Source of the DNA: Phycisphaerae bacterium SM23_33
GTDB taxonomy: Bacteria > Planctomycetota > Phycisphaerae > SM23-33
Direction: 5' to 3'
DNA length: 34,009 bases
NCBI GenBank assembly: GCA_001303665.1
Contig: LJUF01000010.1
Location: forward strand, 1-34,009
Shown: piece after piece, positions 7,088 through 31,832 of the stretch
How positions within the stretch are numbered: position 1 is the stretch's first letter
Layout: the number at the start of each line of letters is the position of its first letter
Translations under genes and position numbers: made by a program
The notes under the pieces: model-generated
Seen by the model: only the letters and a program-made list of their open reading frames with translations
Database searches by the model: none
Told to the model about the DNA's origin: nothing

Positions 7088-7131
7088 AAACAAACTCCAA
7101 ATCCGAAATGCCAAATGTCTCAAACGTCGCG

Positions 7132-7497: not shown

Positions 7498-7509
7498 TCG
7501 GTCTTGTTC

Positions 7510-7525
7510 AGGATTTCGGATTTCG
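7510..7525. repeat. Right arm of the perfect 16-nt inverted repeat (AGGATTTCGGATTTCG); the GGATTTC-rich tract spans 7510-7537
   Basis: It is the reverse complement of 7072-7087. It lies between the acsD stop (7529) and the four-helix-bundle start (7497), partly overlapping the acsD 3' end. Confidence 0.85.
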
Positions 7526-7528
7526 GGA

Positions 7529-9321: not shown

Positions 9322-9322
9322 C

Positions 9323-11254: not shown

Positions 11255-11317
11255 AAGGCCCCTCAATTGCGGATCGGCCGCCGGCGGCGCCAGCCGCTTG
11301 ATCCGCCATCGGACATC

Positions 11318-12661
11318 TTACGCCATCTTGTAGTCGTTTTTGAGGTACGGCCCGATGCCGGAGGCTTCCTTGGGCCCCACCAGGACCTTCCAGCCGCACT
11401 CCTCGGCCAGGGAGGCGGCGATGACGGCCACGTGCCCCGGGATCACCAGTTGGCGGTGGGCGACCTTCTCCTCGACTCCGGCGGCCTTGAGGGCGGCGGC
11501 AATCGTCTCCGGGTTGAACTTATCGGCCGCCCAGGCGGTCAGCACGCTGGTGCCCTCGGTATCGACGGCCAGGATGCGACAGGGAATGCGCGAGGCCTCC
11601 ACCTCCGACTCCACGGAATAGTAGCTCAGGGAGAAGTTGGTGGTCACCAGCAGGGGGCTGTCGGCGGAGGTCTCGCCGACGTCGTAGAGTTTGGCCTCCA
11701 CCTGCACGGGCTTCTGCGGGTCGCTGTAGACGTTCTGCCGGGTGGTGAGGATGGGCACCAGCAAGTGGGGCGGCCAGGCGTCGCAGACCAGCACGGCGGC
11801 ATACTTGGCCACGTGCGCGCAGGCGTCCAGCGCGGCGGCGGTCTTGTCCTCGCCGCAGGCCACCGCCAGGATCGGGCAGCCCAGCGGGCGAAACTTCTTG
11901 TTCAGAGCGGCCCGGCGGCTCTGGGTGGCGAACGCCAGCGCCTCGCGGGCCGGTGCGGCCCCGCGGGAAATGAGCACGTCCCTGACGCCCTTGGCGGCCA
12001 GGGCCTCGACGGTGTCGGCGGCGGCCTGGAGCTCGCCGGCCACACACACCGGCGAGGAGGTCCTTTGCGCCAGGTCGGCCAGCTCGTCGGCGCCGGCCTG
12101 GCCCGTGCAGTACAGCACCGGCCGGCTGCCGTTCAGCGGCCCCATGGCCGCGGCGGAGAGGGCTTCGATCTTGTCGCTCATCAGCACCATAGGCACGCCG
12201 AGCTCGTTGTAGATGACCTCGGCCGCCGCCTGCATCTTGTCCGGCGAGCCGGACTCGTCGGCCAGGGCGATCATGTCCGGATGAATCGTCACGCCCACCC
12301 GCAGGAACTGGAGCTTCCGGAAGGCCTGGCACCGCTGCCGCAGCGCCGGCTCGTCCTCGGCGTCGGAAATTCTCAGGGCCACGGCCGTGGGATGATGGAA
12401 CTTGTCGTCGTGCCGAAACAGGGCGGTCTCCTGCCCTACCTGGATGGCGTTGGGGTCGGCGCCGATCTTCACCAGCCGCTGGGGGGGAGCCGAGGCCTCT
12501 CCCAGCTGGGCGCGGGCCTGGTCCGACAGCCGCGGGCAATCGTCCAGGCCGGCCTGGCCGGCGGCGACCTTCATGGCGAAGGCCAGACACGTCGGCACAC
12601 CGCACTCCTTGCAGTTCTCCTTGGGAAGATGTTTGTAAATCTCCAGTCCTGTCAGTGCCAT
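11318..12661 (-). CDS. acsC: Corrinoid iron-sulfur protein large subunit
   Basis: 447 aa. The N-terminal [4Fe-4S] motif is CKECGVPTCLAF...C, followed by TIM-barrel and B12-binding regions. Length matches Moorella AcsC. Confidence 0.92.
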   Translation of the reverse strand: MALTGLEIYKHLPKENCKECGVPTCLAFAMKVAAGQAGLDDCPRLSDQARAQLGEASAPPQRLVKIGADPNAIQVGQETALFRHDDKFHHPTAVALRISDAEDEPALRQRCQAFRKLQFLRVGVTIHPDMIALADESGSPDKMQAAAEVIYNELGVPMVLMSDKIEALSAAAMGPLNGSRPVLYCTGQAGADELADLAQRTSSPVCVAGELQAAADTVEALAAKGVRDVLISRGAAPAREALAFATQSRRAALNKKFRPLGCPILAVACGEDKTAAALDACAHVAKYAAVLVCDAWPPHLLVPILTTRQNVYSDPQKPVQVEAKLYDVGETSADSPLLVTTNFSLSYYSVESEVEASRIPCRILAVDTEGTSVLTAWAADKFNPETIAAALKAAGVEEKVAHRQLVIPGHVAVIAASLAEECGWKVLVGPKEASGIGPYLKNDYKMA

Positions 12662-12781
12662 CTCGTCACTCCTGCCCAGCCCTTCCCGCGAAGGACTGCA
12701 CCCTTACGTATGCGGCAGCAAAGTGCAGCGCGCCAAGACGGCCGGACCTCGGCTCGCCGCCCAGACTTCATTGCAGCATAT

Positions 12782-14962: not shown

Positions 14963-15063
14963 AACGGACCTCCCGACTGGACTGCCTTTGTCTGCTTACG
15001 GCGTCTGACACATCGGCCGCCGGCCTCCGGCGGCGAGCATCCTCATTCCTGATTCCTGGCCTA

Positions 15064-16359
15064 TCAAAAGAAACCGAACACTTCCTGGTATTCCGGCTCC
15101 TTGAACTTCTCCCGATTGTCCCGGATCACCGGAAACATGGACGCGAAATCGTATTCGCCGGCAACGATCCGCTCCTTCGCCTGGGCCACGTCCACCCGTT
15201 TCTTCACCAGCGATCCCAGCACGCCGGCGTTATCGACCTTTCCCACCAGGGCGAAGCCCACCAGCCGGTTGCCCTGGAAGATGAACCGCTTGCAATCGGT
15301 CTTGCCCGGGCCCTTCCGGGTGATCTCCTCGGCGCCCTCGAGCTTCTCCCTGGCCCCCGTCAGCCCGGAGGTGATCAGCGACAGCCCCCCCAGCACAAGG
15401 GAGTTCATGGAGGTTCTGCCTCCGAGGACCGTGTCCCTGCCCATGACGTTCTCGGCGGCGACCCGGCCTTCCTCGATGGCGTGCGGCCAGAGAGCGTTGG
15501 TCCAGGTCTCGCCGCGAACGGTGTCCGGGCTCTGGGTGACGTCGCCGGCGGCGTACACGTCCGGCACGCTGGTGCGGGAGTGCTCGTCAATGAGAATGCC
15601 GTGTTCGGCCTGGATGTCCGTGCCCTTGACTAGCTGGGTGTTGGCCCGCACGCCCTTTCCGACGATCACCAGCTGTGCCTCGATCTTCCTGCCTTCGGTG
15701 GTCTCGATCCCCGAGACCTTTTCGTCGCCGAGCACCTTGGCGGGGTTGGTCCTGGTGAAGATCTCGATTCCCAGCCTGGTCAGGTGCTCCTCGAAGACCT
15801 GGGCTTCCGGTTCGGCCACGATCTGGCTGAGGACATTCGGCGAGCCGACGGCCACCGTGACCTGCTTGCCGCGCTCGTTGAGGGCAACCGCCGCCTTGAG
15901 TCCCACCAGCCCGCCGCCGAGCACAACGGCCGTATCCACTCCGTCGCAGTACTCGGCGATGCGCTCGGCGTCGGCCAGGGTGCGGAAGCCAAACACGCCC
16001 TGCTTCTCGATGCCGGGGATGTTGGGCATGGAGCACGTGCCCCCGGCGGCGACGATCAGGGCCTCGTAAGCCACCCGCTCGCCGCTGTCCAGAAGCACCT
16101 GCTTTTCCTTCGGCAGCACGCGCACGACCTCGCAGCCCAGCATCGCGTCGATCCGGTTGTCTTCATAGAAGCTGACGGGCTTGAAGAGGATGTCCTCAAC
16201 GGTCTTTTCCCCAGAGACCAGATACGGAATGAGGCAGCGCGAGTACGGGGGAACCTTCTCGTTGGAGATCACCGTGATCTGGCAGGCCGAGTCCAGCTTC
16301 CGCAAAGTCTCCGCCGCCGACAGGCCCGCAGCATGGTTGCCGATGATGACGACCTTCAT
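15064..16359 (-). CDS. FAD/NAD(P)-dependent pyridine nucleotide-disulfide-family oxidoreductase (CODH-associated 'FNOR' type)
   Basis: 431 aa. There are two dinucleotide-binding motifs (VVIIGNHAAG and AVVLGGGLVGLK). ATGA overlap with the cooF stop. Confidence 0.82.
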   Translation of the reverse strand: MKVVIIGNHAAGLSAAETLRKLDSACQITVISNEKVPPYSRCLIPYLVSGEKTVEDILFKPVSFYEDNRIDAMLGCEVVRVLPKEKQVLLDSGERVAYEALIVAAGGTCSMPNIPGIEKQGVFGFRTLADAERIAEYCDGVDTAVVLGGGLVGLKAAVALNERGKQVTVAVGSPNVLSQIVAEPEAQVFEEHLTRLGIEIFTRTNPAKVLGDEKVSGIETTEGRKIEAQLVIVGKGVRANTQLVKGTDIQAEHGILIDEHSRTSVPDVYAAGDVTQSPDTVRGETWTNALWPHAIEEGRVAAENVMGRDTVLGGRTSMNSLVLGGLSLITSGLTGAREKLEGAEEITRKGPGKTDCKRFIFQGNRLVGFALVGKVDNAGVLGSLVKKRVDVAQAKERIVAGEYDFASMFPVIRDNREKFKEPEYQEVFGFF

Positions 16360-16847
16360 GTTTTCAGCTCCGCTTGCTTGGCCGCTTCCCTGGCCTTGCG
16401 CCTCTGGGCGAATTCGTCCGCCGTTGCCTCAAACAGTGCCCCGGTCGGGCAGGCCTCCACGCACACAGGCCCGGCCTCCCTGTCGGCGCACATGTCGCAC
16501 TTGATGGTGAAGACCTCTCCCGGCCTGACGGCGCCGAAGGGGCAGACCATCACGCACATCCAGCAGCCCACGCACTTGTCCGTGTCGCAGATGACCTCGC
16601 CGGTGTCGGCGTCTTTCGTCATGGCCCCGGCCATGCACGCCTCCACGCAGGGGGCCGGGTCGCAGTGGCGGCACCCGATCGTCAGGCACGCCCCTTCCAC
16701 GGGCCTGACCCGCCGCCGCGGCAGCGGCCGGTCCTCTTCCAGCAGGGCCTTGGCCGCTTCCTTGCTCTCGGAATGCTCCACGGCGCAGGCGAACTCGCAG
16801 GAGTGGCATCCCAGGCACTTTCGGCTGTCGAAGTAGACCTTCTTCAT
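16356..16847 (-). CDS. cooF: CooF-like polyferredoxin (multiple [4Fe-4S])
   Basis: Motifs CLGCHSCEFAC, CRHCDPAPCVEAC, CVGCWMCVMVCP and CDMC...CVEACP. The likely start is MKKVYFD at 16847. The ORF-track start at 16877 is an upstream alternative. Confidence 0.85.
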   Translation of the reverse strand: MKKVYFDSRKCLGCHSCEFACAVEHSESKEAAKALLEEDRPLPRRRVRPVEGACLTIGCRHCDPAPCVEACMAGAMTKDADTGEVICDTDKCVGCWMCVMVCPFGAVRPGEVFTIKCDMCADREAGPVCVEACPTGALFEATADEFAQRRKAREAAKQAELKT

Positions 16848-16924
16848 CTTTCCATCACCGCCATTGTTTCGGGGCACCCGATGGTGCCCGCGGTTTTGCT
16901 TCCTGGCCGGCCGCGCGGCCCGGC

Positions 16925-18883
16925 CTACTCGGCGGCCCGGGCCTCCTCCACGGCCGTCCGCGGCGCATACGGCACCTCGTACATGGGCCCGGGCAGGTGC
17001 AGGGCGGACCGCTTGGCGTCGATGTGGTCGATCATCAGGCGGGCCGCCTTGATGGGGTCGGCCTCGAAGGCGAACTTCCCGCCGAACAGCTCCTCCATAT
17101 CCTCGCAGACGAACCGGGTGACCCTTGGCGCGCCTTGCACCGGCAGCGGCTCGCCCAGCACCGTGAACACGCCCGAGGCGACCACGTAGAAGCCGATGGA
17201 GACGGCCTTCTCACTCATCCATTCCGGGGCCGCCCCGGCCACGGGCAGGTCGGCGATGCTTTCGCCCAGCCCGCCTTCCTTGACCATGTTGGACAGCACC
17301 ACCAGGATTCGGCTGTTGTCCACGCAGCTTCCCAGGTGCAGCACGGGCGGGGCGCCGACCGCCCGGCAGACCTCCTGGAGTCCCCTGCCGGCATACTCCA
17401 TCGCCGCCTCCGGGCACATCAGCCCGGCCTTGGCGTCGGCGACGGCGGTGCAGCCGGTTACCGCCACCAGCACGTCGTTGCGGATCAGCTCCTTGGTCAT
17501 CTCCGTGTGGCCGTAGTCGTGCCGGTGCTTGGGGTTGTTGCATCCCACCACGCCGGCCACGCCTCGCAGCCGGCCCGACATGATGGCGTCGTTCAAAGGC
17601 CGGTAGCTCGGCCGGTACCGCCCTCCCAGCATGGCGTAGATGTTCTCGGCCGTGAATCCCGCAACCAGCGGGTTGCTGTGGCCGGGGACGCAGGGCTCGG
17701 TCTTGCGGTTGGGGAAGTTCTCGATGGCCGCGCGCACGATCCGCTTGGCAATCTCCAGCGCCCGCGACTCCTCGAACTCGATGTGCTCGGCAAAGGGGAA
17801 CTTCGCCTTGGGGCTGGTGGAGATGAACTTGGTGTGGAACTTCTGCGACAGCGCCCCCAGGGCGGGGAAGATGCATTGGACGTCCACGATCATGGCGTCC
17901 ACCACGCCGGTGGTGACGGCCAGCTCCTGCTGGAGGAAGTTGCCCGCCACGGGGATGCCGTGCCGCATCAGAATCTCGTTGGCGGTGCAGCAGATCCCGC
18001 TCAGGGTGATGCCCTTGGCGCCTTGGCTCTTGGCCAGTTCCACCATTTCCTTGTCCTGGGCGGCGGCCACGATCATCTCCGACAGCGTGGGCTCGTGCCC
18101 GTGGACGATGATGTTGACGTTCGCCGGCTCCAGGACGCCGAGGTTGGCCCGGCCGCGCACCCACTCGGGCGTGCGGAACAAGACGTCGGACAGGTCCGTG
18201 GCGATCATGCTGCCGCCCCAGCCATCGCCCAGGGACGCGCGGACGCCCTGCAGGATGATGTTCACCGGATCGTTGTCCACGCCGATGTGAGTGCGGTGCA
18301 TGATCTCGACGATCTCGCGGTCCACCCCGCGGGGCATGACGCGGGCCCGCTGCCAGCGCTTCTGCTGGTCGGCCGGCGCCCGAGCGGCGAAGACCACCTC
18401 CCCATGCTGCTGGCCGAACTGGCCGAAGGCAATCTCCGCCACGGCCCGGGCGATCTGGCGCAGGTCCTTGCCGTCGGCCTTGACGCCCAGCTCTTCGGCC
18501 AACGCGCGGAGCTTGGCCTCGTCCTTGACCTGGTAGTCGCACTTCTCGTCCTCGGCCGCCATCAGCAGCGTGTGGGCGATGTCGCGACCGTGATCGGAGT
18601 GCGCGGCGGCCCCGCCTGCAATCATCCGCACCAGGTTGCGGGCGGCGATGATGTCGGCGTCGGCCCCGCAGATGCCCGCGGCCGGGCCTTCCCCGAAGGG
18701 ATCGATCCGGCACGGGCCCATGGTGCAGTTGCGGCAGCAGATGCCGAGCTGCCCGAAGCCGCACTGGGGCTCCATCGCTTCCTGCCGGTCCCAGGCCACC
18801 GCCAGCCCTTTGGAGGCGGCTGCCTCCAGCATCGCAACGGTGGCGGGATCAACGCTTCGCTGTTTGGGCGTTTTCACGGACAC
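16925..18883 (-). CDS. cooS: Anaerobic Ni,Fe carbon monoxide dehydrogenase catalytic subunit
   Basis: 652 aa. The N-terminal D/B-cluster region is CGFGQLGICCRNCTMGPCRI. The protein is CooS/AcsA-like across its full length. The start is GTG at 18883, or GTG at 18877, which has better spacing to GAGAGG. Confidence 0.95.
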   Translation of the reverse strand: MSVKTPKQRSVDPATVAMLEAAASKGLAVAWDRQEAMEPQCGFGQLGICCRNCTMGPCRIDPFGEGPAAGICGADADIIAARNLVRMIAGGAAAHSDHGRDIAHTLLMAAEDEKCDYQVKDEAKLRALAEELGVKADGKDLRQIARAVAEIAFGQFGQQHGEVVFAARAPADQQKRWQRARVMPRGVDREIVEIMHRTHIGVDNDPVNIILQGVRASLGDGWGGSMIATDLSDVLFRTPEWVRGRANLGVLEPANVNIIVHGHEPTLSEMIVAAAQDKEMVELAKSQGAKGITLSGICCTANEILMRHGIPVAGNFLQQELAVTTGVVDAMIVDVQCIFPALGALSQKFHTKFISTSPKAKFPFAEHIEFEESRALEIAKRIVRAAIENFPNRKTEPCVPGHSNPLVAGFTAENIYAMLGGRYRPSYRPLNDAIMSGRLRGVAGVVGCNNPKHRHDYGHTEMTKELIRNDVLVAVTGCTAVADAKAGLMCPEAAMEYAGRGLQEVCRAVGAPPVLHLGSCVDNSRILVVLSNMVKEGGLGESIADLPVAGAAPEWMSEKAVSIGFYVVASGVFTVLGEPLPVQGAPRVTRFVCEDMEELFGGKFAFEADPIKAARLMIDHIDAKRSALHLPGPMYEVPYAPRTAVEEARAAE

Positions 18884-19204: not shown

Positions 19205-20080
19205 ATGAAACTGGCCGTATCCGGAAAAGGCGGTGTGGGCAAAACGACCCTGTCGGCCATGCTGGCGGCGGCCCTGGCCTTGAAAGGGCGCACCGTGGTC
19301 GCCCTCGACGCCGACCCCGACGCCAACCTGGGCTCGGCCCTGGGCCTGCCCGCCGACGAGCCCATCACCCCGCTGGCCGAGATGGAAGACCTCATCCGGC
19401 AGCGGACCGGGGCCCAGAAAGGCTACGGCACCTTCTTCAAGCTCAATCCCAAGGTGGACGACATCCCGGAAAGCTATGCCCGGCGGATCGGCAACATCCG
19501 CCTGCTGGTGCTGGGCGGCATCCGCGCCGGCGGCGACGGCTGCCTCTGCCCGGCCACCGCGCTGCTGAAGGCCCTGCTGGTCCATTTGATCCTCGGCCGG
19601 GACGAGCACCTCATCATGGACATGGAGGCGGGCATCGAGCACCTCGGCCGGGCCACCGCCCAGTCCATGGACGCCTTGCTGGTGGTGGTGGACCCGACGC
19701 CCTGGAGCACCCAGACGGCCCACCGCGTCCGCAAGTTGGCCGGCGACATCGGGATGAAGAAGGTGCTGGCCGTGGCCAACCGCATAAGCCGACCCGACGA
19801 GGCGGACGGCATCCGGCAGCGGCTTGGGGAAATCCCGCTGGCGGGCCATCTGCCCGCCGACGAGCCCATCACCCCGCTGGCCGAGATGGAAGACCTCATC
19901 CGGCAGCGGACCGGGGCCCAGAAAGGCTACGGCACCTTCTTCATGGAAAAGCGGCTTGCCGAGGCTGCGCCTTCCACGCCCGCCCCGAAGGCGCCGATCC
20001 GCAGCCCCGCCCAGCCAACCCGGTTCTGCCGACAGCAAAAAGCCCTTGCCTTCCCCGAGCGGTTTCTGTATACGGAGTAG
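19205..20080 (+). CDS. cooC: CooC-type CODH nickel-insertion ATPase with an aberrant, internally duplicated C-terminus
   Basis: MKLAVSGKGGVGKTT Walker A. CLCP metal motif. CooC-like up to ...GEIPLAGHLPAD. A perfect copy of aa 48-78 then follows, and after it a non-CooC-like 45-aa tail. The long ORF-track entry 16997..20080 is a run-on antisense to cooS. Confidence 0.8.
   Translation: MKLAVSGKGGVGKTTLSAMLAAALALKGRTVVALDADPDANLGSALGLPADEPITPLAEMEDLIRQRTGAQKGYGTFFKLNPKVDDIPESYARRIGNIRLLVLGGIRAGGDGCLCPATALLKALLVHLILGRDEHLIMDMEAGIEHLGRATAQSMDALLVVVDPTPWSTQTAHRVRKLAGDIGMKKVLAVANRISRPDEADGIRQRLGEIPLAGHLPADEPITPLAEMEDLIRQRTGAQKGYGTFFMEKRLAEAAPSTPAPKAPIRSPAQPTRFCRQQKALAFPERFLYTE
19346..19439 (+). repeat. 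94-nt perfect direct repeat, copy 1 (inside cooC)
   Basis: As I read it, this is identical to 19850-19943. The offset is 504 nt, which is in frame. It encodes LPADEPITPLAEMEDLIRQRTGAQKGYGTFF. Confidence 0.85.
19850..19943 (+). repeat. 94-nt perfect direct repeat, copy 2 (cooC 3' region)
   Basis: Identical to 19346-19439. It begins right after the native ...GHLPAD context, which shares LPAD microhomology with copy 1. Confidence 0.85.
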
Positions 20081-20139: not shown

Positions 20140-20250
20140 GGCGTGTGCAGAGGCCCTGAGGTTCGGCGCACTCTGGCACGGCTCAAGCACCCCTGCGGCA
20201 CCCAGGCGAGGTGTAATTGTCAAAACGCCCTGAGCGCAAGGAGATTTTGT

Positions 20251-21999
20251 ATGGGCAAGTCCGTTCCGTCCGACATTGAGATTTCCAGGGCCGCCAAGCC
20301 CAAGCCGATCACCCAGGTCGCCAAGGAGGCGGGCATCCGCCCCAAGGAGCTGGAGCCGTACGGCGACGTCAAGGCCAAGGTGAAGCTGAGCATACTGGAC
20401 CGCCTGGCCAAGGCACCTAACGGCAAGTACATCGACGTGACCGCCATCACGCCCACGCCGTTGGGAGAGGGCAAGACCACCACGGCGGTGGGCCTGACCC
20501 AGGCCCTGGGAGTGCTGGGCAAGAAGGTGTTCCTGTGCATCCGCCAGCCCTCGATGGGACCGACCTTCGGCATCAAGGGCGGCGCGGCCGGCGGCGGCTA
20601 TAGCCAAGTCATCCCCATGGAGGAGTTCAACCTCCACCTCACCGGCGACATCCACGCCGTCAGCATCGCCCACAACCTGCTGGCGGCCGCCGTGGACGCC
20701 CGCATCAAGCACGAGGGCCACGCCGACGACGAGGCCTGGGCGAAGACGGGGCTGCCCCGGCTGAACATCGACCCGGACTCCATCACCTGGCGCCGGGTGG
20801 TGGACGTCAACGACGCGGCCCTGCGCTTCATCGAGACCGGCCTGAGCGACAGCTGGCTGGACGGGCCGCGGCGGAAGACCGGCTTCGACATCTCCGTGTC
20901 CTCGGAGATCATGGCCATCCTGGCCCTGGCCGCCGGGCCGGAGGACATGCGCCAGCGGCTGGGGCGGGTCATCATCGGCCTGAACAAAGACGGCGACCCG
21001 GTCACCGCCGAGGACCTGGGCTGCGCCGGGGCGATGATGGTGCTGCTGAAGGACGCCATCAAGCCCAACCTCATGCAGACCCTGGAAGGCCAGCCCGCCT
21101 TCGTCCACGCCGGGCCCTTCGCTAACATCGCCCACGGCAACAGCTCCATCCTGGCCGACAAGATCGCCCTGAAGCTGGCCGACTACGTGGTGACCGAATC
21201 CGGCTTCGGGGCCGACATCGGCATGGAGAAGTTCTTCGACATCAAGTGCCGCACCAGCGGGCTGGTGCCCAACTGCGTGGTGCTGGTGGGCACCATCCGG
21301 GCGCTGAAGATGCACGGCGGCGGGCCCAAGGTCACCCCCGGCAAGCCGCTGGCCGAGGAGTACACCCGCGAAAACCTCCAGCTTCTGGAGAAGGGCCTCT
21401 GCAACCTCACCCGGAACATCGAGATCGCCAAGATGTTCGGCGTGCCGGTGGTGGTGGCCATCAACCAGTTCCCCGCCGACACGCCCGCCGAGGTGGAGCT
21501 GGCCCGCCAGGCCGCCGAGCAGGCCGGCGCCGAGGCCGCCGTCATGTCCAACCACTGGGCCGAGGGCGGCCAGGGCGCCACCGACCTGGCCGAGGCGGTC
21601 GTGGCCGCCTGCGACAAGCCCACCGACTTCAAGCTGCTGTACCCCAACGAGATGTCCATCAAGGACAAGATCGAGCTGATTGCCAAGAAGGTGTACCTGG
21701 CCGGGGCGCTGGAGTACGCCCCGGTGGCCGAAAGACAGGTCGCCGCCTACGAAAAGGCCGGCCTGAGCCACCTGCCCATCTGCATGGCCAAGACGCACCT
21801 GTCCCTGACTCACGACCCCACGCTCAAGGGCGTGCCCCGCGGCTTCACCGTGCCCATCGTGGAGGTGCGGGCCTCGGCCGGGGCCGGCTTCCTGTACCCC
21901 CTGCTGGGCACCATGCGGACCATGCCGGGGCTGCCCAGCCGGCCGGCGTTCCTGAGCGTGGACCTGGACGGCGACGGCCAGGTCGTGGGCATGTTCTGA
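20251..21999 (+). CDS. fhs: Formate--tetrahydrofolate ligase
   Basis: The ATG at 20251 is preceded by AAGGAG. Sequence includes SDIEI..., [11 protein letters not shown] and the FTHFS family signature throughout. 582 aa. Confidence 0.95.
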
Positions 22000-22144
22000 T
22001 GCGGACCAGCGGCGCCCAGGGAAGCAGCGGACACGACTCGTTTTCAGCCCCGGGTCCGATTGGCTAAGATGTAGGTAGGAGGGTTGCCAGCGGATGGCGG
22101 AGGCTCGGTGTCTCTGGCTTGATTCTCGAGGCGGAGAGGCGTTG

Positions 22145-24226
22145 ATGCAGAAGGCGGACTTGACATCAAGGGACATTGCCGAGCTCGGGCGGGTTACCGA
22201 ACTCATGGAGCGCGAGTGGTCCCCCTGCCGATACCATTGCCCCGTCCACGCGGACGTCCGGGGTTACATCGAGGCGGCCGCTCAGGGCCGGTTTGGCGAA
22301 GCCATCGACATCATTCGGGAGAACCTCCCGTTCGCCGCGGTGTGCGGGCGGGTCTGCCACCATCCCTGTGAGACCAACTGCCGCCGCAAGGACGTGGACG
22401 ACCCTGTGGCCATCCGGCACGTGAAGCGGTTCGTGGCCGAATTGCAGGGCGCCGAAGGCTGCACGGTTCACAAGCCGCCGGCCCAGGACAAGGCCCGGGT
22501 CGCGATTGTGGGCGCCGGCCCGGCCGGTCTGTCGGCGGCGCTGCACCTGGCCAAGCTCGGCTACCGCCCCACGGTCCTGGAGAAGTTCCCTATTGCCGGC
22601 GGCATCCCCGCCACCGCCATTCCCCGGTACCGCCTGCCCCTGGAAGTCGTCCAGATCGACGTGGACTGGATCCGCGCCCACGGGGTGGAACTGATCACCG
22701 GCGTCGAGGTCGGCAAGGACAGAAGCATCCAGGACCTGCTGGGCGAAGGGTACGAGGCGGTGCTGGTGGCGGCCGGCTTGGCCGCCAGCCGCACCCTGCC
22801 TCTGCCCGGCTCCGACCACCCGCGCGTGCATCTGGCCCTGGACTTCCTGACGGCCCTGAACTTCGGCGACAGGCCGGACGCCGGGGATGACGTGCTGGTC
22901 ATCGGCGGCGGCAACGTCGCCTGCGACGCAGCCCGCTCCTGCGTGCGGCTGAAGCCGGCCGCCCGCGTCCGCATGATGTGCTTGGAAAATGAAGAAGAGA
23001 TGCCCGCCTGGGAGTGGGAGCGGCGCGAGGCCGAGGAGGAGGGCGTCGGGATCATCTTCCGCCGCGGGCCGGTGAAGGTGATCCTCGAAGGCGACCGAAT
23101 CGTCGGCCTGACCACCCGCGGGGTCACCCGTGTTTTCGATTCGGAGGGGCGCTTCGACCCGCAGTACGACGACACGGACCTGAGCGACCTGCAGTGCGAT
23201 ACCGTCGTCATCGCCATCGGGCAGATGGCCAACATGGGCTTCGCCCGGGGCAGCGGTCTGAAGGCGGGCCCGGGCGGCCGGCTGGAATACGATCCGGCCA
23301 CCCACCAGGGCAGCCTGCCCAACGTCTTCTTCTGCGGGGAGATCGTCACGCCCCCCGGCTCGGTGGTGGAGGCCTGCGCCCACGGCCAGCGGGCGGCCAA
23401 GGCCATCCACATGTACCTGAGCGGCAAGACCATTCAGATTGACGATTCACTGCCGCCGTACATCGACACCATCCAGCCCGAAACCGCCGAGAAGGTGCTG
23501 AAAGTCTGCCGCCAGGCCATCCCCACGGACCCCCCCCAGCGGCGGAGGAAGCTGTTTACTGAGTTCGAGCGCGGCTACGACGAGCCAGCGGTGCTGGCCG
23601 AGGCCCGGCGGTGCATGAACTGCGGCAGCGGGGCCGAGGTCCTCACCGACAAGTGCGCCGCCTGCCTCACCTGCCTGCGCGTCTGCCCCTTCGACATTCC
23701 GGTGGTGACGGACGTGGCCCGGATCCAATCCACCCTGTGCCAGGCCTGCGGCATGTGCATTGCCGAATGCCCGGCCAACGCCATCATCGCCCGCGGCCGG
23801 GACGTCGGGGAGCTGGTCCAGCACACCGCGGCGGCCTTGGCCAAGATGAACGGGCGCGAGCCCAAGGTTATCGCTTACGTCTGCGGCCACCACGCCGGTG
23901 CCGCCGATTGGGGCGGTCGCGTCGAGGGCGTGGAGGGCGTGGCCGAAATCTACCTGCCCAGCACCGCCCGGCTCAGTTCGGCCGAGCTGCTGCACGCCTT
24001 CGAGAACGGCGCGGATGCCGTGATCGTGGTGGCATGTCCGGACGCGGCCGATCGTTATCCGCAAACGGCCGATCGCACCCGGCGGCGGGTCAACCAGGCC
24101 CGCCGGCTGCTCCAGGAAGCGGGCCTGGACGGCCAGGCCCTGCAACTGCTGGAAGTGGCCGACCAGGGCCGGCAGGCCATCCGCGCCGCCCTGGCCGAGG
24201 CGGCCGGAAAGACAAGTGCCTCTTAG
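22145..24226 (+). CDS. Fusion protein: GltD/NfnB-like NAD(P)H-FAD oxidoreductase plus 2x[4Fe-4S] ferredoxin domain plus MvhD(FlpD)-like domain
   Basis: N-terminal Fe-S region CRYHCPVH...CGRVCHHPCETNCRR. Dinucleotide folds VAIVGAGPAGLSAA and VLVIGGGNVACDAA. Ferredoxin motifs CAACLTCLRVCP and CQACGMCIAECP. The C-terminal part (KVIAYVCGHHAGAADWGG...GADAVIVVACPDA...) is FlpD/MvhD-like. The ATG at 22145 is preceded by GGAGAGG. Confidence 0.82.
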   Translation: MQKADLTSRDIAELGRVTELMEREWSPCRYHCPVHADVRGYIEAAAQGRFGEAIDIIRENLPFAAVCGRVCHHPCETNCRRKDVDDPVAIRHVKRFVAELQGAEGCTVHKPPAQDKARVAIVGAGPAGLSAALHLAKLGYRPTVLEKFPIAGGIPATAIPRYRLPLEVVQIDVDWIRAHGVELITGVEVGKDRSIQDLLGEGYEAVLVAAGLAASRTLPLPGSDHPRVHLALDFLTALNFGDRPDAGDDVLVIGGGNVACDAARSCVRLKPAARVRMMCLENEEEMPAWEWERREAEEEGVGIIFRRGPVKVILEGDRIVGLTTRGVTRVFDSEGRFDPQYDDTDLSDLQCDTVVIAIGQMANMGFARGSGLKAGPGGRLEYDPATHQGSLPNVFFCGEIVTPPGSVVEACAHGQRAAKAIHMYLSGKTIQIDDSLPPYIDTIQPETAEKVLKVCRQAIPTDPPQRRRKLFTEFERGYDEPAVLAEARRCMNCGSGAEVLTDKCAACLTCLRVCPFDIPVVTDVARIQSTLCQACGMCIAECPANAIIARGRDVGELVQHTAAALAKMNGREPKVIAYVCGHHAGAADWGGRVEGVEGVAEIYLPSTARLSSAELLHAFENGADAVIVVACPDAADRYPQTADRTRRRVNQARRLLQEAGLDGQALQLLEVADQGRQAIRAALAEAAGKTSAS

Positions 24227-24238
24227 GAGGTTTTTTCG

Positions 24239-24928
24239 ATGATCGTCGCCGAACGAAAGCCATTCGACGAAATCGTGGAGATGGTCGCGCCGTATAAGAA
24301 GGTGCTGGTGCTCGGCTGCGGCAGCTGCGTGACCGTGTGCCTGACCGGCGGGGAGCGACAGGCTGAGATACTCGCCTCGCAGCTCCGCCTGGCCGGGCGG
24401 AAGAAGGGCCTGGACCTGTCCGTGGACTTCGACTGCATCACCCGGCAGTGCGACCGCGAGTTCACCGAGAACCTCAAGTTCGACCCGGCCGAGTACGATG
24501 CCGTGCTGAGCCTGGCCTGCGGCGTGGGGGTGGGTTTCATGAGCGGGGTGCTTCCCGACACGCCCGTGCTTCCGGCCCTGAACACCACGTTTTACGGCGC
24601 GGGCGTGGCCGAAGGCGTCTGGGAGGAATACTGCCACGGCTGCGGGGATTGTGTGCTGGCCTGGACCGGGGGCATCTGCCCCATCGCCCGCTGCTCCAAG
24701 AGCCTCATCAACGGCGCCTGCGGCGGCACCAACGACGGCAAGTGCGAAGTCAGCCAGGACATGGACTGCGGCTGGCACCTGATCTACAAGCGTCTGCAGG
24801 AGCTCGGCCGGCTGGACGAACTCCGCAAGATGCGCCCGCCCAGAGACTGGAGCAAGAATCGCAGCGGCGGCGTCCGCCGCCTCAGCCGCGAGGAAATGGC
24901 CGAGATCGCCCAGGAGTCCGCCGAATGA
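24239..24928 (+). CDS. metV: Methylenetetrahydrofolate reductase small subunit (MTHFR C-terminal-like, Cys-rich)
   Basis: 229 aa. Sequence includes CGSCVTVC and CPIARCSKSLINGACGGTNDGKCEV...C. ATGA overlap with the metF start. Confidence 0.87.
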   Translation: MIVAERKPFDEIVEMVAPYKKVLVLGCGSCVTVCLTGGERQAEILASQLRLAGRKKGLDLSVDFDCITRQCDREFTENLKFDPAEYDAVLSLACGVGVGFMSGVLPDTPVLPALNTTFYGAGVAEGVWEEYCHGCGDCVLAWTGGICPIARCSKSLINGACGGTNDGKCEVSQDMDCGWHLIYKRLQELGRLDELRKMRPPRDWSKNRSGGVRRLSREEMAEIAQESAE

Positions 24929-25836
24929 ACGAGCCCGTCAGCAAATTGCAGGAGATCTTGGACGCCGGCCAGTTCGCCGTCACCGGAGAGATCGGCCCGC
25001 CCAAGGGCACCAACGTCGAGCCAGCCCTGCACGAGGCCCAGCAGTACCTCGAGGGCCGGGTGGCCGCCGTCAACGTCACCGACATTCAGACGGCGGTGAT
25101 GCGGCTGGGGTCGATGGCCGTCTGCCACCTGCTGCTGGACCGCGGCGTCGAGCCGGTCTTCCAGATGGTCTGCCGCGACCGCAATCGCCTGGCCCTGGAA
25201 TCCGACCTGCTTTCCGCCTACACCCTGGGCATCCGCAACGTCCTGGCCCTGACCGGCGACCACGTGGCCATGGGCGACCATCGCGAGGCCAAGTGCGTCT
25301 TCGACCTGGATTCGGTGGGCCTGCTGGAGGCGATGGCCCGCCTGGAGGCCGGCACCGACCTGGGGCGGGATGCGAAAGGCAACCCCAACCAACTCGACGG
25401 GGTGCCCAAGTTCTTCAAGGGCTGCTGCGTCACGCCCTGCGCCGACGAGGTCGAACCGCAGATCATCAAGCTGGAAAAGAAGGCCACCGCCGGCGCCCAG
25501 TTCGTCCAGACCCAGGCGGTGTACGACCCGGCGGCGTTCGAAAAGTTCATGAACCAGATCCAGCACGTCAAGGTCCCGGTGCTGGTGGGGATCGTGCTGC
25601 TGAAGTCGGCCGGCATGGCCAAGTACATGAACCGCTCGGTCCCGGGCGTGCAGGTGCCCGACGCAATCGTCCAGCGGCTGACCGACGCGCCCAAGGAAGA
25701 CCGCGCCAAGGTCAGCGTCGAGATCGCCGCCGAGCTCATCCGTGCGATGAAGCCCATGTGCCAGGGGGCCCACCTGATGACCCTAGGCTGGGATCACTGC
25801 GTGCCCGACATCATTCAGCAAGCGGAACTGGCGTAA
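24925..25836 (+). CDS. metF: Methylenetetrahydrofolate reductase catalytic subunit
   Basis: 303 aa from the ATG at 24925. It has an MTHFR TIM-barrel sequence (VNVTD..., LALTGD..., AGAQFVQTQAVYD). The ORF-track entry 24448.. includes an out-of-gene N-terminal extension. Confidence 0.92.
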   Translation: MNEPVSKLQEILDAGQFAVTGEIGPPKGTNVEPALHEAQQYLEGRVAAVNVTDIQTAVMRLGSMAVCHLLLDRGVEPVFQMVCRDRNRLALESDLLSAYTLGIRNVLALTGDHVAMGDHREAKCVFDLDSVGLLEAMARLEAGTDLGRDAKGNPNQLDGVPKFFKGCCVTPCADEVEPQIIKLEKKATAGAQFVQTQAVYDPAAFEKFMNQIQHVKVPVLVGIVLLKSAGMAKYMNRSVPGVQVPDAIVQRLTDAPKEDRAKVSVEIAAELIRAMKPMCQGAHLMTLGWDHCVPDIIQQAELA

Positions 25837-25847: not shown

Positions 25848-26825
25848 GTGGCAGCCAAGATCATCGACGGTGAGGCGGTAGCCGAGGAAATCAAGAAGAA
25901 GGTGGCCGCGGACGCGGCCGAACTGGCCCAGGCCGGCAGGCCGCCCCACCTGGTGGCGGTGCAAGTCGGGGAAAACCCGGCTTCCAAGATCTACACCAAC
26001 ATGCAGGCCAAGGCCTGCGAATCGGTGGGGATCCAATACGAGCTGCTCAACCTGCCGGAAGATACGACCCAGGAGGCGCTGCTGGCCAAGGTCGGCGAAC
26101 TGAACGCCGACAAGAAGGTAACGGGCCTGATCCTCCAGATGCCCGTTCCCCCCCAGATCGACGCCCGCCAGGTCCAGGTGAGGCTCTCGCCGGCCAAGGA
26201 TGTCGAGGGCATGCACCCTGAAAACATGGGCCGGCTGTTCTACGGCGGCGGCATCGTCGCCCCTTGCACGGCCCTGGCCGCGGTGGAGCTGCTCAAGCGG
26301 GCCTGCCCGAACCTCACCGGCAAAGAGACGGTCATCGTCGGCCACAGCGAGATCGTGGGCAAGCCCGTGGCCATGATCCTGCTGCAGTCGCTGAACGAGT
26401 CCCCCACCGCCACCGTCTGCCACATTGCCACGAAGGACCTGGCCGCCCACACCCGCCGGGCCGAGGTGCTCATCGTCGCCACCGGCGTTTCGCAGGCGCG
26501 GTGGCAGGCCTACAGCCGAAGGAAAAAGGCCGGCGAGAAGCCCCCGCTGCCGGACCTGTCGCCGTTGATCAAGGCCGACATGCTCCGGCAGGGCGCCATC
26601 GTCATTGACGTGGCCATGAACCGCATCCCCAAGGGCTTCGACGACAGCGGCGAGCCCCTGAAAAACGAAAAGGGCAGCACCATCATGCAGACCGTCGGCG
26701 ACGTGGACTTCGCCGCGGCCAAGGAAAAGGTCGCCGCCATCACCCCCGTCCCCGGCGGCGTGGGGCCGGTCACCGTGGCCATGCTGCTGGCCAACACCGT
26801 GGCCTGCGCCGAGGCCCTGGCCTGA
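25848..26825 (+). CDS. folD: Bifunctional methylene-THF dehydrogenase / methenyl-THF cyclohydrolase
   Basis: The GTG at 25848 is preceded by AAGGAG. Sequence includes IIDGEAVA..., LILQMPVP, VIVGHSEIVGKP and TPVPGGVGPVTVAML. At 325 aa it is longer than the ~285 aa I recall as typical, because of two insertions. Confidence 0.92.
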   Translation: MAAKIIDGEAVAEEIKKKVAADAAELAQAGRPPHLVAVQVGENPASKIYTNMQAKACESVGIQYELLNLPEDTTQEALLAKVGELNADKKVTGLILQMPVPPQIDARQVQVRLSPAKDVEGMHPENMGRLFYGGGIVAPCTALAAVELLKRACPNLTGKETVIVGHSEIVGKPVAMILLQSLNESPTATVCHIATKDLAAHTRRAEVLIVATGVSQARWQAYSRRKKAGEKPPLPDLSPLIKADMLRQGAIVIDVAMNRIPKGFDDSGEPLKNEKGSTIMQTVGDVDFAAAKEKVAAITPVPGGVGPVTVAMLLANTVACAEALA

Positions 26826-26949: not shown

Positions 26950-29244
26950 ATGGACATTGCCAGCCAACTCCAGTTCCACCCGCTGTTCGCCACCTTCAGC
27001 CCTGATGCCCTGGCCGAGGTCGTCCGCGCCAGCACCGCCGTTACCTACCAGCCGGGCGACGTCTGCATCCGGCAGGGCGAGGCCGGAGAGGTCTTCGGAG
27101 TCCTGATCTCCGGGAAGCTGGAGGCGGCCCGCGACCTGGGCACCGAGCAGCGCGAACGCCTGGGCACGATTGAACCGGGCGAATGCTTCGGGGAGATGTC
27201 GCTGCTGACCGGCAGCCCGGCCGCGGCCGAGGTGGTGGCGGTGACGGAATCCGAGGCCGTCGTCTTTCTCCAGGAGGCCATCGGCCCCCTCATCGCCCTC
27301 AACCGCAACGCCGTCCAGCTTCTGACTCGGTTGATGGCACGCCGGCTGGCCGGCCCCAGGCCGCAGGCGACGTCGCCGCGCCCGGCCGCGGTCACCTACA
27401 GCCTGGGCGCCAGCGGCCCCATGCGAATCCTGTCCATAAGCTGCCGCCGGGACGATCTGCGGTACAGCTACTTCGACACGACCTCCGAGCAGGCGCTGGC
27501 AACGGGCAGCGCGACCGGCCTGGGCGGCCAGGAGGCGGTTCACACTCACCGCGGCCCCAAGGGCGCACTTCAGGAGCGGGTCGGCCCCCCCACCCACGAG
27601 GCGGCGCTGGCCGCGGCCCTGGACGCGTTGACAGCCGCCGACGGCGGGCTGCTCGGCTCGGCGGCGGAACTGTCGGCCATCGGGCACCGCGTCTGCCACG
27701 GCGGGCTCGGCTTCAACGGCCCGGCGGTGGTGGATGAGCAGGTGCTGGAGGAGATCCGCCGGCTGGCGCCCCTGGCCCCGATGGAAAACCCCTACAATCT
27801 GCTCGGAATCGAGGCCTGCCGGAAGCTCGCCCCGGGCGTCGCCCAGGTGGCTGTCTTCGACACGGCCTTCCACCTGAGGATGCCGGCCGCGGCCTGCCGC
27901 TACGCCCTGCCCCAAGACCTGGCCGGGGAGGTCGAACTCCGCCGGTTCGGCTCCCACGGGATTTCGCACGAAGGTGCGGCCCGGGCCGCCTGCGCTTACC
28001 TCGGCAGGAACTTCGACACGCTGAAAATCATCAGCTGCCACCTCGGCACGGGGGCCTCGCTGACGGCCATCGATCACGGCCGGCCGGTGGACAATACCAT
28101 GGGCTTCACCCCCATGGAGGGGCTGGTCATGGCCACGCGGCCGGGCGACGTGGACCCCGGTCTCCTGCTGTACCTGATCGCCCAGCGCGGCATCCCCGCG
28201 GAGGAGCTGACCCGCCGGCTGTACACCGAGTCGGGCCTGCTGGGGCTGTCGGGCATCTCCGGTGACGTCCTTACCGTGCTCGGGGCCGCCGATGAGGGAA
28301 ATCCCCAGGCCCTGCTGGCCATGCAGGTCTATTGCCACCGGGCGCGGAAATACCTCAGCGCCTACGTGGGGCTGCTGGGCGGCGTGGACGGGATCGTCTT
28401 CACCGGCGGCGTGGGCCAGAACGCCCCCGGCCTGCGGGCCCGCATCTGCCAGGGCCTGGAATGGATGGGCATCGTGCTGGACGAAGGGCGCAACCGCCAA
28501 GCCCGGCCGGGGGCGGGCGAAGTGGCCGAGATCTCCCAGAGCCAGTCGCGGGCCCGCGTGCTGGCCGTCGGCAGCAGCGAGGACCACACCATCGCGATCC
28601 AGGCCGTCCGCGCCGTGACGCAAAGACGCGTCACCGACGTCATCCGCCACCAGCAAAAGCCGATCCCCATCAGTGTTTCCGCTCACCACGTCCATCTCAC
28701 CCAGGAGCACGTCGAGGCACTTTACGGGGCCGGGCGGGAGCTCACCTGGTACGCCGAACTCTCTCAGCCAGGCCAGTTCGCCTGCAACGAGCAGCTCTCC
28801 CTGATCGGACCCAAGGGCCGCATCGACCACGTGCGAGTCCTCGGGCCCGTGCGGCCGGAAACCCAGGTCGAAATCTCCCGCACCGAGGAATTCAAGCTGG
28901 GCATCGACGCCCCCATCCGCATGTCCGGAGACCTGGACGGCACGCCGGGCCTTACCCTGCAAGGCCCACAGGGCCAGGTCCATCTCCAGCGCGGCGTCAT
29001 CTGCGCCATGCGACACATTCACATGTCGCCGGCCGACGCCATGGAGTTCGCCGTCCGCGACCGCGACACCGTCCGCGTCCGCGTCCCCGGCGAGCGCTCG
29101 CTGGTCTTCGGCGACGTGGCCGTCCGGGTCAATCCGGACTACCGCCTGGACATGCACATCGACACCGACGAGGCCAACGCCGCCGAGCTCAGCCCCGGGG
29201 CCGTCGGCTACCTCGACTCCATCCAACAAAGGGCCTCCGCCTGA
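26950..29244 (+). CDS. Triple fusion: CAP/cNMP-binding-type effector domain plus acetate/propionate kinase-family domain plus PduL-type phosphotransacylase
   Basis: 764 aa. Residues ~8-125 form the cNMP-type beta-barrel (GECFGEMSLL). Residues ~158-556 are the kinase family (GHRVCHGG, VAVFDTAFH, RRFGSHGISH, ISCHLGTGASLTAIDHG, IVFTGGVGQN). Residues ~571-748 are PduL (VSAHHVHL, SQPGQFAC, AMRHIHM, HIDTDEANAA). GAGGG lies 9 nt upstream of the ATG. Confidence 0.88.
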   Translation: MDIASQLQFHPLFATFSPDALAEVVRASTAVTYQPGDVCIRQGEAGEVFGVLISGKLEAARDLGTEQRERLGTIEPGECFGEMSLLTGSPAAAEVVAVTESEAVVFLQEAIGPLIALNRNAVQLLTRLMARRLAGPRPQATSPRPAAVTYSLGASGPMRILSISCRRDDLRYSYFDTTSEQALATGSATGLGGQEAVHTHRGPKGALQERVGPPTHEAALAAALDALTAADGGLLGSAAELSAIGHRVCHGGLGFNGPAVVDEQVLEEIRRLAPLAPMENPYNLLGIEACRKLAPGVAQVAVFDTAFHLRMPAAACRYALPQDLAGEVELRRFGSHGISHEGAARAACAYLGRNFDTLKIISCHLGTGASLTAIDHGRPVDNTMGFTPMEGLVMATRPGDVDPGLLLYLIAQRGIPAEELTRRLYTESGLLGLSGISGDVLTVLGAADEGNPQALLAMQVYCHRARKYLSAYVGLLGGVDGIVFTGGVGQNAPGLRARICQGLEWMGIVLDEGRNRQARPGAGEVAEISQSQSRARVLAVGSSEDHTIAIQAVRAVTQRRVTDVIRHQQKPIPISVSAHHVHLTQEHVEALYGAGRELTWYAELSQPGQFACNEQLSLIGPKGRIDHVRVLGPVRPETQVEISRTEEFKLGIDAPIRMSGDLDGTPGLTLQGPQGQVHLQRGVICAMRHIHMSPADAMEFAVRDRDTVRVRVPGERSLVFGDVAVRVNPDYRLDMHIDTDEANAAELSPGAVGYLDSIQQRASA

Positions 29245-31160: not shown

Positions 31161-31832
31161 TCAGGCTCGGCGCCTTCGCCTCAACACCAAGCAGGCGCCT
31201 GCGGCGAAAAATCCCAGCGTGGCGGGCTCCGGGACAGCATAGATGGCGCCGCCAAGATTGGCATGACCAAAGTGCTCGTTTTGCACCCAGCCGCTCACGC
31301 CTGAGTTCCACCAGTAGAAGTCCGGGCTGCTGCTCCCGATGGATGGTGGATCGTAGAACTTGCTGTTTATGGCGGTAGTGGTCTGCTGGTCGGTGAGAAC
31401 GTAAGCCCACGTGATCGTGTCAGGAACCGTCACGTTAGGGATATCAATTGAAACAAGGTTGTAGCCGTCTGACAGGGGTACGTCGTCCAAGAGTCCACTG
31501 TCCCACAGCACCGTCCCTGGTTTTCCGTCAGACCCATCGTTCAGATATATCCGGGCCAGCAGATCGGTGGTTCCATCCCCCGAGATGAGCGGGATCTCCA
31601 GTCTCGTCAATTCGCGGACCGTTCCCGCCAGAGTAACCTCATCGCCGCGCCAGACCCCGTCTACGCCTGTCATGCTGCTCCTGTCGATGCCAGGCAAGTT
31701 GCTGTAGACGGCGGTTTCGGCGAGTGATGTGCCCGCCGAAGCTCCCAAAGCCGCCGCCATCGCCAGAGACGCCCAGATGCCAGTCCTGGCCGCCATGATC
31801 GCCCTTTTCACAGATCCTTGCGAGTCTCTCAT
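31161..31832 (-). CDS. PEP-CTERM-anchored secreted protein, function unknown
   Basis: The ATG at 31832 is preceded by AAGGAGAGGG. It has a signal-peptide-like N-terminus (...AMAAALGASAGTSLAE). The C-terminal VPEPATLGFFAAGACLVLRRRRRA is a canonical PEP-CTERM sorting signal. Confidence 0.8.
   Translation of the reverse strand: MRDSQGSVKRAIMAARTGIWASLAMAAALGASAGTSLAETAVYSNLPGIDRSSMTGVDGVWRGDEVTLAGTVRELTRLEIPLISGDGTTDLLARIYLNDGSDGKPGTVLWDSGLLDDVPLSDGYNLVSIDIPNVTVPDTITWAYVLTDQQTTTAINSKFYDPPSIGSSSPDFYWWNSGVSGWVQNEHFGHANLGGAIYAVPEPATLGFFAAGACLVLRRRRRA

Follow-up and report, generated by a model that had tools for sequence, protein, structure and literature searches.

The first 34,009 nucleotides (nt) of contig LJUF01000010.1 from Phycisphaerae bacterium SM23_33 (assembly GCA_001303665.1; this whole stretch is called the window, and its G+C content is 68%) form a Wood-Ljungdahl cluster, and one gene in it raises the question of how acetyl-CoA leaves the pathway. 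The gene, at positions 26950-29244 of the forward strand, encodes a sensor-like domain, an acetate kinase (Ack) fold and a PduL-type phosphotransacylase on a single chain. Does this fusion protein carry out both steps from acetyl-CoA through acetyl-phosphate to acetate and ATP, as an earlier note made from the sequence alone had claimed, and could a small molecule control it? We find that the gene belongs to a widespread family, present in over 100 uncultured bacteria, with an intact PduL module, and that in the clade of the window the ATP-phosphate elements of the kinase domain have been replaced by a different, conserved set of residues. The domain is probably still catalytic, though this is an evenly balanced judgement, and the sensor is unlikely to bind cyclic nucleotides in the usual way.

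The gene is one open reading frame (ORF) of 764 codons without an internal stop, starting at an ATG with a GAGGG motif 9 nt upstream. Profile scans detected all three domains: Pfam cNMP_binding at residues 31-114 (E 6e-17; 61.8 bits against a cut-off of 27.5), Acetate_kinase (PF00871) at residues 160-549, covering positions 2-391 of the 392 in the model (E 5.7e-106; 354.9 bits against 22), and PTAC (PF06130) at residues 573-747, covering positions 1-175 of 176 (E 6.6e-77; 257.7 bits against 25). The curated cut-offs of the NCBIfam ackA model TIGR00016 (349.4 against 293.4) and of the phosphate propanoyltransferase model PRK15070 (261.8 against 209) were exceeded as well. The uninterrupted 764-residue, three-domain ORF described in the earlier note is thus confirmed, with domain boundaries near-identical to the Pfam limits. 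Of the two linkers proposed there, the first stands and the second does not. In the AlphaFold2 model of the 764-residue protein, built from a 56-sequence family alignment (mean predicted local distance difference test score, pLDDT, 85.7; predicted template-modelling score, pTM, 0.75), residues 135-149 between sensor and kinase are the only stretch predicted to be disordered (pLDDT <50), and this linker is the least conserved part of the protein (42% mean identity). The last kinase helix (residues 544-568), however, is predicted to continue toward PduL, with no loose linker at residues 557-571. The G+C content at third codon positions stays between 0.82 and 0.98 in all 50-codon windows, both junctions included, without sign of a frameshift, and a repeat scan of the ORF found neither direct nor inverted repeats. 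No Rfam family matched in the window, and a consensus scan for promoters and terminators around the fusion gene found none.

The architecture is not peculiar to this genome. A family search over 5.8 billion proteins, with clusters formed at 90% identity, yielded over 110 clusters that have these three Pfam domains (759-790 residues, 99-100% query coverage, 53-75% identity), derived from ENA, JGI, NCBI and Logan assemblies. Cluster members that have a name go by 'acetate kinase' or 'acetate/propionate family kinase' and come from Planctomycetota, Phycisphaerae and one 'Lentisphaerae'. GTDB contigs (one genome per species) contain the three-domain form too, at 43-46% identity, in distant records that bear the labels Candidatus Kuenenia stuttgartiensis, Candidatus Magnetobacterium casense, Armatimonadia and a deltaproteobacterium. 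In Myxococcota on these contigs, two-domain Ack-PduL proteins lacking the sensor are common; they are found in Aureispira and Cytophagales as well. The fusion ORF is a real single gene. Its three-domain architecture is less novel than had been suggested: it is frequent in public data, under several phylum labels, an Ack-PduL fusion was in print in 2016, and the sensor-Ack-PduL form is an added variant of that published core. What is new here is that a Wood-Ljungdahl-linked clade has a kinase without the hallmark ATP-phosphate motifs, that the sensor lacks a key arginine throughout the family, and that a split gene resembling the N-terminal part of Pta is sometimes adjacent.

By Foldseek, the predicted middle domain superposes on the acetate kinase of Methanosarcina thermophila (1g99/1tuy) with a TM-score of 0.95 and a root-mean-square deviation (rmsd) of 1.7 Å over 400 columns. 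Residues were mapped by alignment to this enzyme, AckA, whose numbering is used below. The PHOSPHATE-1 motif V-I-N-A-G-S-S-S-L-K-Y is changed to S-I-S-C-R-R-D-D-L-R-Y (N7S, G9R, S10R, S11D, S12D and K14R), and none of its five hallmark residues (N7, S10, S11, S12 and K14) is kept. Other ATP contacts are altered too, namely N211T in PHOSPHATE-2, G239A in LOOP3 and R285L in LOOP4 (T367, A395 and L441 of the fusion protein). In the acetate pocket V93C, L122M and F179S (C249, M278 and S335) are replacements and only P232 (P388) is kept; H123E and T182I are also changed. The protein retains R91, D148, R175, H180, H208, R241, R340 and E384, with H336 and R397 of the fusion as the equivalents of H180 and R241, and it retains the ADENOSINE motif (G331, G333 and N335; G487, G489 and N491 of the fusion). 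Judged by these residues, the derived kinase domain is not a standard AckA. The claim that both steps to acetate and ATP lie on one chain therefore holds in part: the PduL module is complete by sequence, but a normal acetate kinase is unsecured, with the five hallmarks and further ATP contacts replaced.

These replacements characterize a clade. In a family alignment of 118 sequences, 97 have the derived form and 17 have the canonical residues, the latter comprising a Planctomycetota subgroup, the Kuenenia-labelled sequence and the deltaproteobacterial one. The two-domain fusions keep canonical kinase residues as well. In a neighbour-joining tree of the Ack and PduL region, the derived clade that includes the window is monophyletic and nested inside the three-domain family. 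G9R is found in 97/97 derived sequences, S12D in 89/97, K14R in 96/97 and Asp or Glu at position 123 in 96/97. The catalytic core is kept nearly without exception (D148, H180 and R241 in 97/97, E384 in 96/97), as are R175 (96/97), R340 (97/97), G331 (96/97) and, somewhat less strictly, N335 (91/97). The new PHOSPHATE-1 motif, S-C-R-x-[DN]-D-x-R-Y, is strongly conserved, with R166 of the fusion in 97/97, and AlphaFold2 predicts the new hairpin with a pLDDT of ~90 and two new arginines at its tip. Where R91 is lost (to C, M, L or V), position 93 becomes Arg, giving GHCVRHGG versus GHRVCHGG, a compensated swap that speaks for selection still acting on the acetyl-phosphate site. Outside the Ack domain, few fixed differences separate the derived from the canonical sequences, and they are uninformative.

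We considered simple decay of the kinase domain, and it is not supported by this pattern. Because the new hairpin motif is strongly conserved, the core residues stand at 99% or more and the loss of R91 is compensated at position 93, we argue from the alignment that the derived kinase domain is still under functional selection.

The PduL module poses fewer difficulties. It matches the Rhodopseudomonas palustris PduL (5cuo) by sequence with E 6e-48, and its predicted double beta-barrel superposes with a TM-score of 0.93-0.94 and an rmsd of 1.5 Å. In R. palustris numbering, the zinc ligands H48, H50, E109, H157, H159 and H204 correspond to H580, H582, E641, H689, H691 and H736 of the fusion and are all kept, and so are the phosphate-positioning residues R103 and S127 (R635 and S659). 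None of these eight residues varies among the family members (118/118). By sequence, the module is a competent phosphotransacylase. Its domain is internal to the fusion, and bacterial microcompartment (BMC) shell Pfam domains were found in no scanned ORF of the window, which rules out a microcompartment-associated PduL. This places the fusion PduL in the non-BMC class, in line with the description of Ack fusions by Erbilgin et al.

The N-terminal sensor was matched in the PDB to the cyclic-nucleotide-binding (CNB) domains of PKG, PKA-R, CRP and Pat (best match 1e-21), and a beta-barrel plus helices is predicted for it. In its phosphate-binding cassette (PBC), FGEMSLLTGSPAAAEV, the Arg that contacts the cyclic phosphate in PKA and PKG cassettes and the Ser/Thr next to it are A91 and A92. 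Across the family F80, G81, E82 and S84 are invariant (118/118), and the Gly-Glu pair that binds the ribose 2'-OH (G81 and E82) is thus kept. Position 91 itself is T in 80 sequences, S in 28, A in 6 and G in 4, with Arg in 0/118, and three positions further on 100/118 sequences have Asp or Glu. The missing canonical Arg that the earlier note had pointed out in the window protein is therefore a family-wide trait, and the suggestion that the ligand may not be cAMP or cGMP is borne out as probable from such a PBC. A canonical cAMP/cGMP receptor is ruled out by the absence of both the Arg and the Ser/Thr, and the cassette makes it unlikely that a cyclic nucleotide is bound in the usual way. A sensor-only search, exhaustive over representatives, returned mostly multi-CNB proteins. 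Several other bacterial proteins, some of them with patatin, protein-kinase or TPR domains, have Arg-less cassettes of the form FGEMSLLT..P.SATV, and because of these similar cassettes we assign the sensor, on its motif, to a broader and uncharacterised class of Arg-less bacterial CNB domains. Among 783 loosely matched PBC-like motifs from the nearest 149 representatives, Arg was the commonest residue at the Arg position (353).

The location of the fusion gene suggests which pathway it serves. It is the last in a same-strand series of cooC-like, fhs, HdrA/MvhD-like, metV, metF and folD genes and follows folD after a gap of 124 nt; its placement directly after fhs, metVF and folD had been read correctly. 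The same is true of the missing classical Pta, as the PTA_PTB domain was found in none of the 31 window ORFs scanned, and of the proposal that PduL stands in for it. A stand-alone protein of the Pta N-terminal type had also been recognised at 4143-5234 on the reverse strand, and this AAA_26+DRTGG protein indeed aligns to the class II Pta model, which has 708 positions, from position 3 to position 370 (E 9e-49).

Relatives of the fusion gene (their loci are given by L numbers) extend this picture. Of the 15 distinct contexts of the derived clade, 8 have Wood-Ljungdahl genes beside the fusion gene, in shuffled order. The window and L082 share the order metV-metF-folD-fusion; it is cooC-fhs-fusion in L090, cooC-fusion in L085 and acsD-acsE-DRTGG-fusion in L086 and L028. 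In L089, formate dehydrogenase genes are upstream and folD-metF-metV are downstream on the opposite strand, and in L030 the gene for RACo is downstream. Wood-Ljungdahl neighbours were found in 0/5 three-domain contexts outside the derived Planctomycetota-type clade (L005, L018, L020, L033 and L087). Because the linkage recurs with shuffled gene order, it supports a functional tie of the fusion gene to the pathway that is specific to the clade with the rewired kinase. In addition, L086 (8530-9630) and L028 (6499-7584) have a homologue of the AAA_26+DRTGG protein immediately upstream of the fusion gene and on its strand, and this protein may partner the PduL-containing enzyme in a regulatory role.

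Two further kinds of neighbour were seen. In two derived-clade contexts without Wood-Ljungdahl neighbours, L088 (8160-9876) and L091 (12378-13994), a GAF-domain histidine kinase and a response regulator are immediately beside the fusion gene. Proteins with a PEP-CTERM motif are encoded near it in the window (31161-31832, reverse strand), in L081 (12477-13550) and in L085 (14830-17459).

We propose that the conserved three-domain family handles the acetyl-CoA/acetyl-phosphate/acetate node and that, in this lineage, it was recruited to the Wood-Ljungdahl cluster. PduL would replace the missing Pta, converting acetyl-CoA made by CODH/ACS (carbon monoxide dehydrogenase with acetyl-CoA synthase), together with phosphate, to acetyl-phosphate and CoA. 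The Ack fold, joined to PduL by the predicted helix, would still bind acetyl-phosphate and transfer its phosphoryl group, most probably to ADP, and the flux would run toward acetate. This transfer would use a rewired nucleotide-phosphate site, marked by the Arg/Asp-rich PHOSPHATE-1 hairpin and by the loss of N211, G239 and R285. The CNB-fold domain, on its flexible linker, would act as an allosteric sensor for a ligand other than cAMP or cGMP. From the residue patterns, we consider that a sensor-gated PduL with a rewired and probably still catalytic kinase, placed at the acetyl-CoA exit of the pathway, has an even chance of being the correct description.

Several observations weigh against an active kinase, and they speak for a protein in which PduL is the sole catalytic module. 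In such a protein, the Ack fold would have no ATP-linked activity and would provide a scaffold for dimerisation, an allosteric site for acetyl-phosphate or a nucleotide, or both. The CNB domain and the Ack fold would together form a large N-terminal regulatory region, comparable in function to that half of class II Pta, and ATP would come from a separate Ack encoded elsewhere in the genome. Ingram-Smith et al. count all five PHOSPHATE-1 residues lost here among the hallmarks of every acetate kinase, and their loss is accompanied by N211T, G239A and R285L. In M. thermophila AckA the same authors found that single changes at these positions are costly, with losses of ~44-fold for N211T, ~12-fold for G239A and 7-9-fold for R285 variants. 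Position 211 and the pocket positions V93, L122 and F179 vary within the derived clade. The mean pairwise identity of the Ack domain is 63% in the derived clade versus 74% in the canonical sister group, and no such drop is seen in the sensor (64 versus 62%) or in PduL (79 versus 80%); the faster evolution is limited to the Ack domain. Moreover, the kinase has degenerated independently elsewhere in the family with PduL intact. It is dead in the Armatimonadia three-domain member (L020, 9755-12037; H180D, R241T and E384R) and partially lost in the three-domain member P0103 and in Candidatus Magnetobacterium casense (L018, 10001-12295; G9R, S10I, S11A and N211H), and in both the Armatimonadia and the Magnetobacterium proteins all PduL zinc ligands are kept. 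Because the Armatimonadia kinase has lost H180, R241 and E384, kinase activity is dispensable in the three-domain architecture at least once. In the derived clade, however, the near-complete conservation of D148, H180, R241 and E384 (at least 99%), the adenosine motif and the compensated R91/C93 swap exceed what a scaffold would require, the new hairpin motif is strongly constrained, and the Wood-Ljungdahl context calls for a kinase that consumes acetyl-phosphate. We regard the loss of kinase activity in the derived clade as the main alternative, a serious one but less likely than an active kinase.

Another explanation keeps the Ack fold active and gives it a non-standard use of ADP/ATP. The acceptor at the Arg-rich hairpin might be phosphate, forming pyrophosphate (PPi) as in the Entamoeba enzyme, or some other molecule. 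Consistent with this, the changes cluster at contacts to the ATP phosphates and adenine (PHOSPHATE-1, N211, G239 and R285) while the acetyl-phosphate core is kept, the PPi-dependent Entamoeba enzyme has N211T and G239S, and the model places two new arginines at the hairpin tip. But G331, which is Gln in Entamoeba ACK and has been suggested to determine the choice between ATP and PPi, is retained, N335 of the ADENOSINE motif is retained as well, and position 211 is not fixed to one residue; we think a switch of acceptor or donor improbable. Weakest of all is the idea that a sequencing or assembly frameshift fused two or three neighbouring genes, a concern the earlier note had raised itself: another part of the window has a perfect direct repeat of 94 nt (19346-19439 and 19850-19943), a sign that the assembly is not flawless, but the coding signal is even across the junctions, the ORF is free of repeats, a continuous helix is predicted over the Ack-PduL junction and, because more than 110 independent assemblies, as well as GTDB genomes, contain full-length homologues with the same uninterrupted architecture (760-772 residues in the clusters), an artefact is effectively excluded.

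Taken more broadly, the Ack fold may have been repurposed in the Wood-Ljungdahl-linked clade, either as a pseudo-kinase that senses acetyl-phosphate or a nucleotide and gates PduL, or as a kinase whose new phosphoryl acceptor sits at the Arg/Asp-rich hairpin. Combined with a CNB sensor for something other than a cyclic nucleotide, it would form an undescribed regulatory valve at the acetyl-CoA exit. We put this forward tentatively, as a possibility that falls somewhat short of an even chance. The matter is of practical weight, as the steps from acetyl-CoA to acetate and ATP decide the net energy yield of the Wood-Ljungdahl pathway. Metabolic reconstructions of uncultured Planctomycetota-type metagenome-assembled genomes will score this gene as 'acetate kinase' and credit the organism with substrate-level phosphorylation. 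Because the ATP-phosphate elements are replaced across the Wood-Ljungdahl-linked clade, neither the label nor the credit for substrate-level ATP is safe. If the kinase is active, it would be a natural ASKHA active site rebuilt from different residues; if it is inactive, an enzyme domain would have come to regulate the partner it once worked with in the pathway. In either case, the family is a tractable single polypeptide for probing the ligands of the widespread Arg-less bacterial CNB domains.

The coordinates of the fusion gene, its parts and the surrounding Wood-Ljungdahl genes are collected in the table.

Table. The three-domain fusion gene and its surroundings in the window (positions of the 34,009-nt stretch; residues are those of the fusion protein).
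Feature	Position	Strand	Evidence
Whole three-domain ORF (CNB-like sensor, Ack fold, PduL)	26950-29244	+	Profiles, homologues, AlphaFold2
N-terminal cyclic-nucleotide-binding-fold domain, residues 1-134	26950-27351	+	Pfam, PDB sequence matches, AlphaFold2
PBC-like segment FGEMSLLTGSPAAAEV, residues 80-95	27187-27234	+	Alignment to PKG/PKA PBCs
Sensor/Ack-fold linker, residues 135-157	27352-27420	+	pLDDT, low conservation
Acetate-kinase-fold (ASKHA) domain with divergent active site, residues 158-556	27421-28617	+	Pfam, TIGR00016, Foldseek, residue mapping
Remodelled PHOSPHATE-1 hairpin SCRRDDLRY, residues 164-172	27439-27465	+	Alignment to M. thermophila AckA
Ack-PduL connector, residues 557-571	28618-28662	+	AlphaFold2 continuous helix
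PduL-type phosphotransacylase domain, residues 572-750	28663-29199	+	Pfam PTAC, 5cuo match, invariant residues
Formate dehydrogenase alpha, then Fe-S subunit	1073-3109 (alpha)		
Stand-alone AAA_26+DRTGG protein, end of the divergent acs operon, possible partner	4143-5234	-	Profiles
Divergent CODH/ACS operon: cooS, Pyr_redox flavoprotein, acsB, acsC, RACo, cooC, acsD, acsE, DUF3786	5262-18883	-	
cooC-like gene	19205-20080	+	
fhs	20143-21999	+	
HdrA/MvhD-like flavoprotein gene	22094-24226	+	
metV	24239-24928	+	
metF	24925-25836	+	
folD	25848-26825	+	

Some of these neighbours have features of their own. The cooC-like gene between cooS and fhs is hidden within a long antisense ORF and contains both copies of the 94-nt direct repeat. 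At a shared 'LPAD' microhomology, after which relatives go on GHLPTDARLAEG..., the CooC C-terminus gives way to the second copy, and ~40 C-terminal residues are absent. Either the region has been rearranged locally or the assembly is wrong here. The Pfam match of fhs begins only at residue 43 of the ORF that starts at 20143. The gene at 22094-24226, between fhs and metV, encodes a GltD-like flavoprotein fused to an MvhD/FlpD-like domain. In L082, a relative with 75% identity, the same fhs-metV slot (4067-7118) has genes for the small and large subunits of a NiFe hydrogenase and for HycI, which suggests that the electron-input modules for MetVF are interchangeable. Within the acs operon, between acsE and acsD, lies a small ORF (7132-7497, reverse strand) whose product has the domain of 23S rRNA intervening-sequence proteins (PF05635, E 4e-12).

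Several known systems resemble parts of this protein. Our literature search found no paper on the three-domain sensor-Ack-PduL architecture; a paper on acetate activation in Kuenenia lists no such gene, and a Phycisphaerae genomics paper does not mention the pathway. The closest precedent is the Ack-PduL fusion of Erbilgin et al. 2016 (PLoS Biol, PMC4784909), in which Acetate_kinase and PTAC are likewise on one chain and PduL has no encapsulation peptide. The authors proposed that it replaces Pta in a Pta-Ack pathway and favours channelling, in a one-sentence database remark on fusions that were never characterised. The two-domain forms in Myxococcota and Aureispira have canonical kinase motifs and no sensor, whereas the window protein has a CNB-like domain and a rewired PHOSPHATE-1/ATP-phosphate site. 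In Moorella thermoacetica, PduL1 and PduL2 show that a PduL can act as the Pta for Wood-Ljungdahl acetyl-CoA, producing acetyl-phosphate. Unlike in the fusion, the PduL and Ack of Moorella are separate proteins without an attached sensor, and its acetate kinase is canonical.

The kinase domain invites comparison with two other enzymes. It has the predicted fold of M. thermophila acetate kinase and shares with it R91, D148, H180, H208, R241, E384, G331 and N335, but differs at all the replaced positions given above, from N7S through K14R, V93C, L122M, H123E, F179S and T182I to R285L. Like the PPi-dependent ACK of Entamoeba histolytica, in which the phosphoryl partner has changed, it has altered ATP-contact residues. 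The comparison covers positions 211, 239 and 331: the Entamoeba enzyme has N211T and G239S, its G331Q is absent from the fusion, and it is stand-alone. In overall layout, the fusion resembles class II Pta (E. coli-type, ~710 residues), which also has a C-terminal phosphotransacetylase domain on a long chain with a large N-terminal region. Its catalytic PduL is, however, unrelated to PTA_PTB, and its N-terminal part consists of a CNB domain and an Ack fold, not AAA_26 and DRTGG. The N-terminal half of class II Pta exists in the window as a separate gene, at 4143-5234, and in some relatives it adjoins the fusion gene.

The sensor has two counterparts. In trypanosomatid PKA regulatory subunits, replacement of the PBC Arg shifts the ligand from cAMP to nucleosides (inosine, guanosine and adenosine). 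Those subunits, like the fusion, have a CNB domain without this Arg, which in their case is replaced by a polar residue. They differ in having Glu at the A202 position, where the fusion family has an invariant Ser together with Asp or Glu three residues after the Arg position. Mycobacterial Pat (4onu/4orf), the best NCBIfam match for the sensor region, likewise places a CNB domain N-terminal to an enzyme of the acetate/acetyl-CoA node. The CNB domain of Pat is a true cAMP receptor and its partner domain is a GNAT acetyltransferase, whereas the partner domains in the fusion are Ack and PduL.

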